DNA of 64,000 nucleotides, taken from the NCBI GenBank assembly GCA_012295275.1, contig CM022670.1, positions 1,302,001 through 1,366,000 on the forward strand, in the 5' to 3' direction. The number at the start of each line of letters is the position of its first letter. Within the stretch, counting starts at the first letter, position 1. Below the pieces are notes generated by a model. It saw only the letters and a list, made by a program, of their open reading frames with translations. It did no database searches and was not told the origin of the DNA. Positions 11,941 to 18,077 of this stretch are shown here, piece after piece. Source of the DNA: Chrysomallon squamiferum (Eukaryota > Animalia > Mollusca). The position numbers and the translations under genes are program-made.

Positions 11941-12442
11941 TATTATTATTATTATTATTATTATTATTATTATTATTTGATATTATTGTTGTTGTTGTTA
12001 TTATTACTTGTTATTATTATTATTATTATTATTATTATTATTATTATTATTATTATTATTATTATGTAATTAGTATTAGTATTAATGTTATTATTTCTAT
12101 TTAGTTATGAATATTCTCTGTCTTATGTTCGTCTCATTAGACTCTGCACTTAGACAAAATTCGGGAACGCACTTTCACGATGCAAACTCTTTAAAAGGCT
12201 GATATTGCTGATCAGTTGATTTTGGTGTTTGCAATGAAACAGAAGTGGTGATGGTATTTCTTTACAAAGTTAAGCAACATTTTTATTCACAGAGTTACTA
12301 AAGAACAAGCAAACTCTGATGGAGCAGTTTTAAGTTTTCAAAATTAAAAATATTATTACAAATTAATATTACATAACACTAGCCCGTGTCTTCACATAGA
12401 AACATGTAAATATGTATTTGACGGTGAAGCAAACACAGAAAT

Positions 12443-12682
12443 TTAATAATCGACTAAATAGGTGCTGCCCACTGTGAGTGCCCAGTAGTCAGCTCTGAAG
12501 GTTCCAGTAAAGGAAGTCACATGACCAAATTGTTTTTTGATTTCAGTCAGTATCGTCAGAGTTTGACCTTCGACAGTATCAGTACCGTATCCATAGATAC
12601 GTTTTCTGATTTTCCTAACTGGAGGCATTGGTCTCCCAAACCCAATCAAATTTACAGAACACTTATCCACAAAGTATGAGTA
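12443..12682 (-). CDS. Locus B terminal exon (YSYFVDKC...GYGTDTVEGQT...FGHVTSFTGTFRADYWALTVGSTYLVDY*)
   Basis: Polypyrimidine tract plus ttgcag|; 240 nt to TAA; AATAAA on the minus strand near 12282-12287. Confidence 0.9.
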   Translation of the reverse strand, partial: YSYFVDKCSVNLIGFGRPMPPVRKIRKRIYGYGTDTVEGQTLTILTEIKKQFGHVTSFTGTFRADYWALTVGSTYLVDY

Positions 12683-13068
12683 CTGCAAGAAAGAAAAAAA
12701 AAAAAAAAAAAAAAATTGGTTTCACGCGCAAAGAGAATTATTACGCACATGCGTTCATTAACCATCGATCCATCGATCCTCCATATAGAACATATACATG
12801 CATATGTACATATATCTACATACATACATACATATATAGATATGCATACGTACATACACGCCATTCTACTCAGCAAAATATTGGTAAATATACGTTACTG
12901 CTAACAGATAAAATGACTCTACAGACTGATGTATAGAAGAAAGTATATGACTATAAGACATCTGATAACTGAGACTTTTAAAAAGTGATAACATTCTACC
13001 AATTCTTTCATTTACGTCTAAAGAAGCTTTTTTTTTTTCTTTTTTTTTCAGAATCAGAGAAATCGTAC

Positions 13069-13370
13069 CAGTATGACTTTCTGGATAGTGACTTCAGCAG
13101 GCACCTTAATCCACCAGGCTACAGCCAGATAGGACGTCAGAACTAGAACAACGGGTTTGTCTGTGTATCCCGAAATGACTAGAGTCGTATTCTCAACTTT
13201 AGCTGATGTTCGATAGATGTTTGTATAGCATCCAAGTACGTGAACTTCGGGCGACAGATTCAGATTGCTTTCATTGAAACAGCCGTACACAATCGCTTGC
13301 TTTCTGCCGCGATACAGTGGAACCGCCCTGGTTTGGTCTTCGCTGTGTACAAAACAACCAGCATAATCAG
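13069..13370 (-). CDS. Locus B domain exon (PDYAGC...PEVHVLGCY...KPVVLVLTSYLAVAWWI...KVIL)
   Basis: tttacag| and CTG|gtacga; 302 nt, phase 1 to 0; paralogous to 2287-2588 and 16041-16339. Confidence 0.9.
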
Positions 13371-13661
13371 CTGTAAATACAATTTTTAAATATTTCAAAT
13401 TGTGTCCCTTTACTTCATCGATTCGGACTGTTTCCCGTTCCGAACATGGCCTCTGACTCTGACAGTGTTTTCATCTCTGTGTGTGCGTGTGTATGTATGT
13501 ATGTATGTATCTATGTATGTATGTATGTATATGCGTGTGTATGTGAGTGTTTGTGTATTTTGCGTGTATGGGTGTGAGTGGTTGTATGTATATGTGTCTG
13601 TATGTACTTCTGTGAGCATGTGTATGTGTCAACAGATAAATTTATTTATAATGATACATAC

Positions 13662-13772
13662 GCAAGCACGTATAGTAGTTGTATCCAGTTTTGTCACAAA
13701 CACAGTATCCGTCAACACATTTGGCTTTTAACCTATGAACACCCGAACAATAAGTTCCCAGGCAGTGAGTAG
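13662..13772 (-). CDS. Locus B EGF-like exon (ATHCLGTYCSGVHRLKAKCVDGYCVCDKTGYNYYTCL)
   Basis: catttaaag| and |gtatgt; 111 nt, phase 1 to 1; six conserved cysteines. Confidence 0.9.
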
Positions 13773-14663
13773 CTTTAAATGATCATAATAAATATTTACA
13801 AATTATACACTTGTATGCTTACCTACCTACCTACCTATATATATCGATGCATATATGCATACATATATACATACACAAATACATTCATACATACAAACAC
13901 ACACTATTATTAAAATAAAAAGTAAAATAAAAATCAATTTAAAGCCAGTATATAAAAATACATAAATAAATAAATACATACATACATACATACATACATA
14001 CATACACACACGCATACATACACACATACAAATATATATACATACATACATTCATAAATATATACATACATGCAAACATACATACAAACATACATAGGCA
14101 AGCGAAACAGAGAAAAAGAGAGAGAGAGAGAGAGAGAGAGAGAGAGAGAGAGAGAGAGAGAGAGAGAGAGAGAGAGAGAGAGAGAGAGAGAGAGAGAGAG
14201 AGAGAGAGAGAGAGAGAGAGAGAGAGAGAGAGAGAGAGAGAGAGAGAGTATGTGTTTCACAGAAAGATAATTTTAAAATACATACTTGGAGTTAGTTCTG
14301 TAAAACAAAATAATAGTAACTACAGTGAGAAATAAATACAATCATTAGATTAAATACAGTCTAAAATATGACGTATTAACATTAAATAAGTAGATAAATG
14401 ATGATCATGGTACTGATTATTTTAATAACAATAGCACAAAGTTAGGTAAAAGAAGATGAAAGAACTTGATGTAACAGATAAGACTTGGGAACATAAAATA
14501 TATGAAATTTGAACAAATAAGCCAAGATAGGATGAGATATGATAAGATATCGTGATCACATATTTAACACAAGACACTGAGAGAACAGAAATAATAATTA
14601 TAATCTAAAGAATAACCAAGTTTGTTTTGTTGGGTTTTTTGTTGTTTTTTTGTAACCACTTAC

Positions 14664-14679
14664 CATTCCTTCCATTCCC
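14664..14679 (-). CDS. Locus B 16-nt micro-exon (GNGRN)
   Basis: ctattacag|GGGAATGGAAGGAATG|gtaagt; phase 0 to 1; same length and flanks as 17682-17697. Confidence 0.75.
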
Positions 14680-15547: not shown

Positions 15548-15763
15548 TCAGCTGACCACTCTGAGTGACCATTGGTTAGCGCTGTAGGTTCCAGTAAAGG
15601 AAGTCACGTGTCCAAACTGTTTCGTGACGTCAGCCAGTAACTTGAATGTGTGACCTCCGAACATATCAATACCGTATCCATAGAAACCCGTTCTGCTTTT
15701 CTCAACTGGAGGGTTGTATCCACCACTCACAACTACAAAAGTCTTTTCCATAAAGTGTGAATA
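15548..15763 (-). CDS. Locus C terminal exon (YSHFMEK...GYGIDMFGGHT...FGHVTSFTGTYSANQWSLRVVS*); complete predicted protein is 233 aa, secreted
   Basis: ctcttgcag| acceptor; 216 nt to TGA; the following ~50 nt of 3'UTR are homologous to those after locus B. Confidence 0.9.
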   Translation of the reverse strand, partial: YSHFMEKTFVVVSGGYNPPVEKSRTGFYGYGIDMFGGHTFKLLADVTKQFGHVTSFTGTYSANQWSLRVVS

Positions 15764-16040
15764 CTGCAAGAGAGAAAGAAAAATGGTTTTAGTTTCACAC
15801 GTAAACAGGATACATACGTAAATACATTAACCTATCCATCCATCCATCAATGTACATATACATATATACATACATACACGCCATTCTACTCAGCAAAATA
15901 TTAGTGAATATACGTTACTGCTAACTGATAAAATGACTCTACAGACTGATGTATAAAAGAAAGCATACGACTGTAACACATCTGATAACTGATATTATTA
16001 AAACGTGATGAGATTCTAAACGTTTTTTTCTAAATCTTAC

Positions 16041-16339
16041 CAGCATGATTTTCTGGACAGTGATTCCAGCAGGCACAGTAATCCACCAGTATACAGGTTT
16101 GTAGGACGTCAAAACAAAAACAACAGGTTTGGTTGTCTGTCCCACCAAGTCAACAACAGTAAACACGGGTTCAGACGGTCCTTCCACGTTCGTATAGGAC
16201 GCAAGCACGTGAACCTCGGGCAACAGGTTCTCGGTGTTTTTATTGAAACAGCTGTACACAGACAATCGGCTTTTGTCATGATAAAGTGGAACCGCCCTGC
16301 TTTCTGTGTTTCTTTGTACTAAACAACCAGCATAATCAG
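16041..16339 (-). CDS. Locus C domain exon (PDYAGC...LPEVHVLASY...KPVVFVLTSYKPVYWWI...KIML)
   Basis: tttgcag| and CTG|gtaaga; 299 nt, phase 1 to 0. Confidence 0.9.
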
Positions 16340-16570
16340 CTGCAAATAAACAACTTAAATAAACAAAAATTATGTCCCTTTAATTCATCGATTCAGATTA
16401 TCTTCCGTTCCAGCCATGGCCTCTGACACTGACTGTGTGTGTGTGTATCAGTGTGTGCGCGCGTGTGTATGTGAGTGTTTATGTATGTGTGTATTAGTGT
16501 TTGTTCGTGTATATATGTATCTTGATGTATGTTTGTGTGAAGAGATAAATGTATGTATAAAGATACATAC

Positions 16571-16681
16571 GCAAGCACGTGTAGTAGTTGTACCCAGTTT
16601 TGTTACAAACGCAGTAATGGTTGACACATCTGGCTCCAATCTTAGACAACCCCGGACAATACGTTCCCAGGCATCGACTTT
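16571..16681 (-). CDS. Locus C EGF-like exon (KSRCLGTYCPGLSKIGARCVNHYCVCNKTGYNYYTCL)
   Basis: catttaaag| and |gtatgt; 111 nt, phase 1 to 1; six conserved cysteines. Confidence 0.9.
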
Positions 16682-17681
16682 CTTTAAATGATTATAATAA
16701 TACTTTACTTATAGATTATGCACTTGTAAACCAACATACCTACCTACGTATATACATGCATAAATATGTATACACACTAGCCCGAGTATCCTCTGTCGAA
16801 AAACAGATCACATTTGGATGTCATCAGCAGGAGATAGGTCTATATCTTGGCTGGTAAACTTATAGATATAGACATAAGGAAATAGAGAGAGAGAGAGAGA
16901 GAGAGAGAGAGAGAGAGAGAGAGAGAGAGAGAGAGAGAGAGAGAGAGAGAGAGAGAGAGAGAGAGAGAGAGAGAGAGAGAGAGAGAGAGAGAGAGAGAGA
17001 GAGAGATAAGGAAAGAGAGAGAAGGATAGGAAGTGCGTGAGTGATAGAGAGGTAGAAAGTGTAAGAATGTATGTCTTTCACAGGCAGTTTAACAATAAAA
17101 ACAAAGGTTGAGAGAGAGAGAGAGAGAGAGAGAGAGAGAGAGAGAGAGAGAGAGAGAGAGAGAGAGAGAGAGAGAGAGAGAGAGAGAGAGAGAGAGAGAG
17201 AGAGAGAGAGAGAGAGAGAGAGAGAGAGAGAGAGAGAGAATATATGTATTTCACAAAGAGGTAATTTAAAAATAAATACTTGGAGTTTTTACTGTAATAG
17301 AATAAAAGTAAATACAGTCAGAAATAAATACAATCATTTTATTAAATACATTCTAAAATGTATGACTTGATATTAACTATAACAACAACAACAACAACAA
17401 AAATAACCATTGCAACAACAATTATAACAGCAGTAACAACAACAACAACAATAATGATTATAAAATACGTTAAACAGGATGAAACAACACGATATGATGG
17501 ATAAAATTGGGTCACATGAAATAAGGAAAACATTGATGAACTGGGTCAAGATAACATAAGATGAAATTAGATATGATAAGAAAGATAAAGTAAGATGAGA
17601 TAATAGCACTGATAATTCAAATATATTCTATAACCAGATATATATATATATTTAAAGTTAACTAATTAAGTAACAACTTAC

Positions 17682-17697
17682 TATTATTGTTATTCAC
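17682..17697 (-). CDS. Locus C 16-nt micro-exon (VNNNN)
   Basis: ctattacag|GTGAATAACAATAATA|gtaagt; phase 0 to 1 restores frame between leader and EGF exons. Confidence 0.78.
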
Positions 17698-18077
17698 CTG
17701 TAATAGTAAATATTTATTTAAGTATGCGTGTACGTCTGCTTGTATATAAGTATTTAAGTATTTACTTATGTGTACAAAAGTCCTTACGTATGTATGTATG
17801 TATGTATGTATCTATGTATGTATGTATGTATGTATGTATCTATGTATGTATGTATGTATGTATGTATGTATGTATGTATGTATGTATGTATGTATATATG
17901 TATGTATGTATGTATGTATGTATGTGTATATATATGCACGTATGTATATGTGTATGTATGTATGTATGTGTGTATCTATGTATGTATTTATGTGTGTATG
18001 TATGTATGTATGTATGTGTGTGTGTGTGTGTATGTATGTATATTATGTCATAAGAAATAACATAAACTAGTACTTAC

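Follow-up and report, generated by a model that had tools for sequence, protein, structure and literature searches.

Gene Models of Paralogues B and C

We analyzed a window of 64,000 nucleotides (nt) of contig CM022670.1 of the mollusc Chrysomallon squamiferum, and this work concerns two tandem paralogues within it, B and C, which are predicted to encode secreted proteins with a domain of the orphan type known from betaglycan and endoglin, and which have probably diverged under diversifying selection. The window is AT-rich animal DNA laden with microsatellites. Repeat-masked self-comparison and six-frame reading revealed four related units, all on the minus strand: A (1545-5689), B (12443-14679), C (15548-18137), and D (18401-18757). 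All the gene structures described here are DNA-based predictions.

Paralogue C was composed of five exons with AG/GT ends and contained an open reading frame (ORF) of 233 amino acids. Exon 1 (18078-18137) starts with an ATG and is predicted to encode a 20-codon hydrophobic leader resembling a signal peptide (hydropathy maximum 2.67), followed by a phase-0 GTAAGT donor. Next comes a 16-nt microexon (17682-17697; AG/GT, phase 0 to 1), which is required for an open frame and has an equivalent of the same size and at the same place in B. Exon 3 (16571-16681) encodes six cysteines, exon 4 (16041-16339) the first part of the orphan-type domain, and exon 5 (15548-15763) its second part and the stop, completing the ORF. 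The six-cysteine exon, which is 111 nt long and of phase 1-1 in A, B, and C, encodes what we take to be an EGF-like unit. Pfam gave no EGF family for these 36-amino-acid exons and no family for the orphan-type domain; the exon of A had a match to scorpion toxins, below the cut-off only.

In B, the last four exons were intact and ordered as in C: the microexon (14664-14679), the EGF-like exon (13662-13772), exon 4 (13069-13370), with the first part of the domain and the segment most divergent between the copies, and exon 5 with the stop (12443-12682). The ORFs and splice sites were intact in C and in exons 2-5 of B. In B, exon 1 of C found its best local match at 15103-15159, a stretch with 19 hydrophobic codons and a weak phase-0 donor; this stretch is a candidate first exon but not an established one, and its likeness to C exon 1 was not above chance (273 of 300 shuffles scored as well). 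Alternatively, B may share exon 1 of C, a start that is also in frame. A weak phase-0 donor was also observed at 15551-15556 (minus strand), two codons upstream of the C stop, and B has no such donor. Its use would fuse C and B in frame into one two-unit protein of 453 amino acids, with an EGF-like unit placed between the two orphan-type units.

The initial annotation had described B and C as a tandem duplication with an offset of about 3 kb, and this was borne out, since homology extended over 12407-14946 and 15492-17963, in minus-strand copies about 3 kb apart. A contig of sequencing run X6 (record 26) bridged the B microexon and the last exon of C, and because it joins both copies, it supports the tandem arrangement. 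This contig and a synonymous divergence (dS) of 0.30 ruled out that B and C are two haplotypes assembled in tandem.

Relatives and Predicted Fold of the Orphan-Type Domain

A profile of three domain exons retrieved four distinct PDB sequences, all of them betaglycan, with a best E of 1.6e-6. In agreement, when an AlphaFold model of P0041, a coral-type homologue about 38% identical to B and C, was analyzed (22 sequences, pLDDT 80.8), the top 10 Foldseek rows were all orphan domains of betaglycan or endoglin (E <= 0.0014), and the next row had an E of 0.38. The model aligned with betaglycan with a Z of 17.4 and an rmsd of 2.8 over 155 residues, and with endoglin with a Z of 11.8, while the next unrelated structure gave 3.6. 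Strand motifs, helix, and paired cysteines likewise align with those of the betaglycan (TGFBR3) and endoglin orphan domains. However, B and C differ from these proteins (identity 15-21%) in that an EGF-like unit precedes the domain and both the ZP domain and the C-terminal membrane anchor are absent. Each ORF of B and C holds one orphan-type unit, not a pair of intertwined subdomains, and in A as well as in B and C the domain is immediately followed by the stop.

The nearest database relatives of the paralogues were proteins of the gastropod Gigantopelta aegis: B and C grouped with LOC121383034 (P0079; 50% identity, support 99), and A with LOC121374683 (P0013; 64% identity, support 99). B and C are 54% identical to each other, almost as distant from one another as from P0079, while A has retained 64% identity to its own Gigantopelta relative. 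The profile found 355 clusters at E <= 0.001, and those inspected came from corals, sponges, amphioxus, a hemichordate, a sea cucumber, a bivalve, and a gastropod. In animals, the unit is found alone, in tandem, or together with trypsin, Ig, sushi, LRR, lectin, WAP, reeler, TSP1, vWD, or TARSH_C domains, and at least one of these partners was present in 13 of the 19 scanned proteins (counted by eye). Judged from these contexts, the EGF-like plus orphan-type unit is a mobile extracellular module. The Gigantopelta, coral, sponge, amphioxus, hemichordate, sea-cucumber, and bivalve proteins with this module share the unit architecture of B and C, but those of Gigantopelta carry TARSH_C, whereas B and C are predicted to be stand-alone units lacking it.

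Coral homologues include chains of two and four units, and in one of them, P0063, four EGF-like plus orphan-type units in a single chain are nearly identical, pointing to concerted evolution. Bacterial proteins (P0004-P0039 except P0013), many with ECF sigma-factor domains, contained several tandem repeats related to the orphan-type domain. Some homologues carry the precomputed accession PF26060. Database names were mostly 'uncharacterized' or 'hypothetical', and others (F2, E-selectin-like, PRMT7) seem to denote other domains. A search for single-exon proteins yielded 0 of 242 candidates, the ESM Atlas gave no usable match, none of 114 pattern matches in metagenome contigs was confirmed, and no description of the family was found in the open-access literature.

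The single unit has two cysteines before its EVHVL strand. In the profile, they fall on two successive betaglycan subdomains, the first where one subdomain ends and the second where the following one starts, and the P0041 model aligns across betaglycan residues 4-333. According to extracts of an endoglin study (PMC5464963), disulfides link C30-C207 and C53-C182 in endoglin, and the proposal made there is that an OR2-like gene was duplicated and then circularly permuted; section 9 of that paper links the origin of the orphan region only distantly, to tubulin cofactor C. Tandem duplication of a single unit with swapped N-terminal strands would yield the same pattern.

Divergence of Exons and Introns

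The case for diversifying selection had initially been built on introns said to be far more conserved than the exons. The counts behind it were right: the intron 4 segments at 12853-12972 in B and 15873-15992 in C differed at 8 of 120 nt (112/120 identical, 93%), amino-acid identity was 54/100 in the domain exon and 24/37 in the EGF-like exon, and the clustering of the amino-acid differences was confirmed by a runs test (p 0.026). However, the comparison was unequal, as the best intron block was taken as DNA and set against amino-acid identity. The other intron blocks named there do align, but less well (14 differences over 71 nt, ungapped, at 13395-13465; 83% identity at 14249-14372).

In one MAFFT alignment of B and C with tandem repeats masked, 516 of 659 aligned intron columns were identical (78%), and 410 of 545 (75%) when the 120-nt block was left out. 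The corresponding values were 474 of 644 (74%) for the three main exons and 49 of 63 (78%) for fourfold sites. Fisher tests of introns versus exons gave a p of 0.55 without the block and 0.052 with it, and all introns versus fourfold sites a p of 0.87. Exons 3-5 were 76, 72, and 75% identical and introns 2-4 were 75, 79, and 83% identical, the introns reaching 78, 83, and 87% with a second aligner. Exons, introns, and silent sites have thus diverged equally, and the claimed excess of intron conservation was not found, since repeat-masked introns were 75-78% and exons 74% identical. Sequence simulated at a distance (d) of 0.30 showed an apparent identity of 77%. Together, the intron, fourfold-site, and simulation identities indicate a neutral distance of about 0.25-0.30, which the exons match; only the 120-nt block is more similar than this.

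In simulations, an identity of 112/120 was reached in 0 of 40 runs at each d of 0.25, 0.30, and 0.35, in 2 of 40 at 0.20, and in 11 of 40 at 0.15. Within the window, a 20-mer of the block occurred only in B and C, and several contigs shared the 120 nt at 90% identity or more. The block is a separate local feature, which may stem from conversion between members of the family or may be a cis-element under constraint. An RNA gene in it was rejected as unsupported: the 31 Rfam matches were all far below the gathering scores and mostly to AT/GT repeats, and the folding z-scores (-0.8 to 1.0) were no better than those of shuffles. Both copies contain, on the sense strand, a weak hairpin, about 60 nt long and with 17 bp in its stem (12858-12921 and 15878-15941, minus strand), of a size like that of pre-miRNAs. 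The three B/C differences within it are all in unpaired positions, and its z-scores were only -1.6 and -1.2, not significant against shuffles.

Codon-Level Tests

Over the whole gene (213 codons), nonsynonymous divergence (dN) was 0.34 and dS 0.30, giving a dN/dS ratio (omega) of 1.15 (confidence interval 0.77-1.71), and differences were flat over the three codon positions (0.26, 0.25, and 0.29). The control pair A/D (118 codons) showed a dN of 0.33 and a dS of 0.96, a ratio of about 0.34, with 0.27, 0.25, and 0.47 over the codon positions. That dS was not significantly below dN in B/C, and that high intron similarity came down to one short block, goes half of the way towards refuting the initial reading; diversifying selection is moderately supported by the codon tests described below, and not by intron conservation.

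Codons were classed by their conservation in homologues, with B and C excluded to avoid circularity. With 15 homologues, omega was 0.43 in the 64 core codons, 1.29 in the next 60, and 1.88 in the 89 variable ones (bootstrap 1.1-3.6), and dS in the same order was 0.37, 0.24, and 0.29; core and variable codons thus form two rate classes. Maximum likelihood estimates were obtained with a GY94 codon model written for this analysis, with shared distance and kappa, and all p values from these tests are one-sided, without correction for the several thresholds. The variable-class omega was 1.5-2.4 and exceeded 1 at p < 0.05 in 16 of 16 settings, and the observed likelihood-ratio test (LRT) value was reached by 5 of 150 null simulations. 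When 59 homologues were used (45 full-length units from new matches and 14 earlier rows, with P0052 and partial units dropped), the variable-class omega was 1.8-2.3, with p values of 0.0004-0.005 in 3 of 3 settings, and p remained below 0.05 in 3 of 3 when double mutations were allowed. Moreover, model M2a was preferred over M1a (p 0.009, or 0.016 with double mutations allowed). An artefact of double-nucleotide mutation was rejected, as adjacent and non-adjacent doubles were found at 26:12, near the 2:1 expected for independent hits.

By predicted structure, dN was 0.23 in strands and 0.42 in loops (dS 0.25 and 0.31), and the frame cysteines were retained 8/8 in B and C. Decay of B only was ruled out by similar departures of the two copies from consensus (7 vs 5 and 10 vs 11) and by equal numbers of derived residues relative to the Gigantopelta outgroup P0079 (24 in B and 24 in C). 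The most divergent B/C segment, which follows the EVHVL strand, had a nucleotide identity of 50%. The cleaner excess of dN was found in codons 41-75 and 121-175, windows picked after seeing the data. In codons 121-175, which lie beside the 120-nt block, synonymous differences (pS) were few (6.1 of 40.7 sites) and nonsynonymous differences (pN) many (34.9 of 124.3 sites).

Variants among Contigs of the Same Organism

Contigs from five of 11 listed sequencing runs of the same organism, none of the 11 recorded as RNA, were compared with the window. Among the near-identical contigs listed for B, at least 11 codons had nonsynonymous and at least one had synonymous changes; two of the 11 were read by hand, from a four-base cluster given as one substitution and two gaps. 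Among the same contigs, 15 of 556 coding positions were variable against 4 of 637 non-coding ones (p 0.005), with 0 of 322 in the intron. The 11:1 ratio rejected an omega of 0.2 (p 0.0002). In C, three coding variants were detected among the rows listed, all of them nonsynonymous. Relative to C, some contigs had 39 differences in exon 5 and 17-20 in the last part of exon 4, and because such contigs are closer to C than B is, further copies of the family exist. In runs X2 and X6, most of B exon 4 had no contig at 90% identity or more, while contigs on the flanking intron were exact; this observation was not used, as a hole in contigs proves nothing. Contigs of run X10 (organism B) matched the window only on repeats.

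Relaxed Constraint and Gene Conversion as Less Likely Alternatives

Several results weigh against diversifying selection. The codon tests are based on only two sequences, and the whole-gene omega of 1.15 was not distinguishable from 1 (LRT 0.3-1.5). With 15 homologues, allowing double mutations left p < 0.05 at 2 of 4 thresholds, and dropping codons near indels or ends (167 of 213 kept) at 1 of 4; the same trimming with 59 homologues (160 of 212 kept) left it at 2 of 3, so that the signal became weaker but held in the majority of tests. Some changes affected sites conserved in the family, 15 of 64 core codons being different, and this was so in both copies. Codons 86-120, in the segment aligned with the betaglycan loop, also had a high pS (12.5 of 29.8 sites), which may reflect an older imported segment or misalignment, and the heterogeneity of pS along the gene was borderline (p 0.06-0.09). 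The 11:1 variant ratio was not different from neutrality (p 0.16), and the B variants may be allelic, may come from additional recent copies, or may be due to mistakes in the window sequence. In addition, B has no established first exon, its neighbour D is a broken copy, and the fold model is that of homologue P0041, neither B nor C.

Some of these points fit a relaxation of constraint, with near-neutral drift outside a small core in the style of birth-and-death evolution and the variable-site excess as noise: a whole-gene omega of about 1, a variant ratio compatible with neutrality, departures of both copies at conserved sites, and the state of D and of the first exon of B. Nevertheless, M1a, which has only conserved and neutral codons, was rejected against M2a, and it needs a neutral distance of 0.44, above the estimates from introns (0.15-0.26) and fourfold sites (0.26). 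The intact ORFs and splice sites, the eight retained cysteines, and coding variants denser than non-coding ones also argue against relaxed constraint, which we regard as unlikely.

Gene conversion could also have made a mosaic of B and C, with tracts that homogenized introns and parts of exons or imported older exon segments, in which case dN and dS would not report selection. It would account for one intron block far too similar for a d of 0.25 or more, for the several distinct contigs on the block and the exon ends along with further diverged copies, and for the low pS next to the block together with the high pS of codons 86-120. Conversion, however, copies silent and replacement sites alike, so that omega is not raised by it alone. 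Moreover, dS was similar across the conservation classes and highest in the core, fourfold differences were not clustered (p 0.33), and pN stayed high where pS was lowest, in codons 121-175. We consider conversion as the sole cause quite improbable; it can act jointly with selection.

Interpretation and Comparison with Known Systems

Diversifying selection on a predicted secreted binding protein of the orphan fold is, in our judgment, the best reading of B and C, and we favour it with some reserve; its action on a binding surface is moderately supported. B and C would then be young tandem duplicates whose products, if expressed, are predicted to be secreted and to combine an EGF-like unit with a single orphan domain of the betaglycan type. 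The cysteine frame and the core would be under constraint, and the variable positions would have evolved at about twice the rate of silent sites. These positions may form a binding face, and selection likely favours new surfaces for a changing, probably foreign, partner, which could be a molecule of a microbe or parasite instead of an own growth factor.

The literature facts used for comparison come from extracts of PMC11865472, PMC5464963, PMC2474615, and PMC10875847. The most divergent B/C segment aligns with the betaglycan loop that is the main TGF-beta contact, and scrambling of this loop is described there as abolishing TGF-beta binding. The products of B and C could be soluble traps for own ligands of the TGF-beta family, which split ligand specificities once in a burst of positive selection with no arms race. 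The fold is that of the betaglycan and endoglin orphan domains, divergence lies in the loop equivalent to that of betaglycan, and, according to the same extracts, the two vertebrate proteins bind through different interfaces on this fold. On the other hand, these sources state that the betaglycan interface requires both subdomains and the linker and that endoglin OR2 alone does not bind BMP9, while the B and C ORFs have one unit. Replacement variants also keep arising among near-identical copies, and the module, besides occurring in bacteria, adjoins lectin, LRR, sushi, WAP, and protease domains in other proteins, so we think ligand traps very unlikely.

Returning to diversifying selection, snake three-finger toxin genes resemble B and C in being tandem duplicates with a fixed cysteine frame and variable exon segments. 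As reported in the part of PMC2474615 consulted, the mature toxins are 31-60% identical and intron segments are more than 85% identical throughout, whereas the introns of B and C average 75-78%, equal to silent sites. The sequences gave no sign of a venom role for B and C, the only toxin match being the one below the cut-off in A. The PTC1/2 proteins and FREPs of the snail Biomphalaria (PMC10875847), products of hyperdiverse genes that are candidates for pathogen recognition, are likewise extracellular proteins of a gastropod with high replacement diversity and clustered copies, and, as far as described in that extract, they have no domain in common with B and C.

That exons of duplicated genes for secreted proteins can evolve rapidly is already known, so the pattern alone is ordinary. 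What is new is the scaffold: the orphan fold, described from vertebrate TGF-beta co-receptors, occurs as a mobile single-unit module from sponges to amphioxus, and in a mollusc it appears to be under diversifying selection. If true, invertebrate immunity or reproduction would gain a further candidate scaffold for recognition, and the single unit would offer a testable ancestor for the orphan region of endoglin and betaglycan. A broader and more tentative proposal, which we think doubtful as a whole, is that an undescribed secreted family with a single betaglycan-fold unit forms a hypervariable recognition repertoire, an expanding cluster that diversifies the loop serving betaglycan for TGF-beta and in which conserved intron blocks next to the variable exon serve as conversion anchors. 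Under this proposal, the vertebrate orphan region would descend from this unit in its un-duplicated form, through a tandem duplication in which N-terminal strands were swapped, and not through circular permutation of an OR2-like gene.

Paralogues A and D and Other Features of the Window

Paralogue A (1545-5689, minus strand), the internal control, had an intact ORF of 360 amino acids in five exons (5689-5291, 4382-4352, 3049-2939, 2588-2287, and 1784-1545). Its first exon (5291-5689) encodes two PPxY-type motifs and a hydrophobic, membrane-like N-terminal stretch. This exon is similar to the N-terminal end of Gigantopelta P0079, a protein with a B/C-like domain, yet the domain of A is closest to P0013, which suggests exon shuffling between the two subfamilies. 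Paralogue D (18401-18757, minus strand) is A-like and probably a pseudogene: its EGF-like exon is broken, and it has an in-frame internal deletion of about 60 codons along with the last intron. No alignment of A and D introns was found by BLAST.

An inverted duplicate of 167 nt, 93% identical, flanks B, C, and D, with copies at 11680-11880 (plus strand) and 20215-20380 (minus strand). The first copy contains a longer remnant of an A/D-type EGF-like exon with its donor, and the second, upstream of D, only the last codons of such an exon. Such a layout suggests that D was broken by a rearrangement. Between A and B, a long array of tandem units, each about 26 nt, was observed at 9430-11290. The segments 12110-12225 and 14959-15051 match each other at 74%; because very many contigs match at 12110-12225, this segment is likely a high-copy repeat and not part of the duplication. 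Finally, a 234-codon open frame at 48721-49422 (plus strand), without a Pfam match, was GC-richer than its surroundings.

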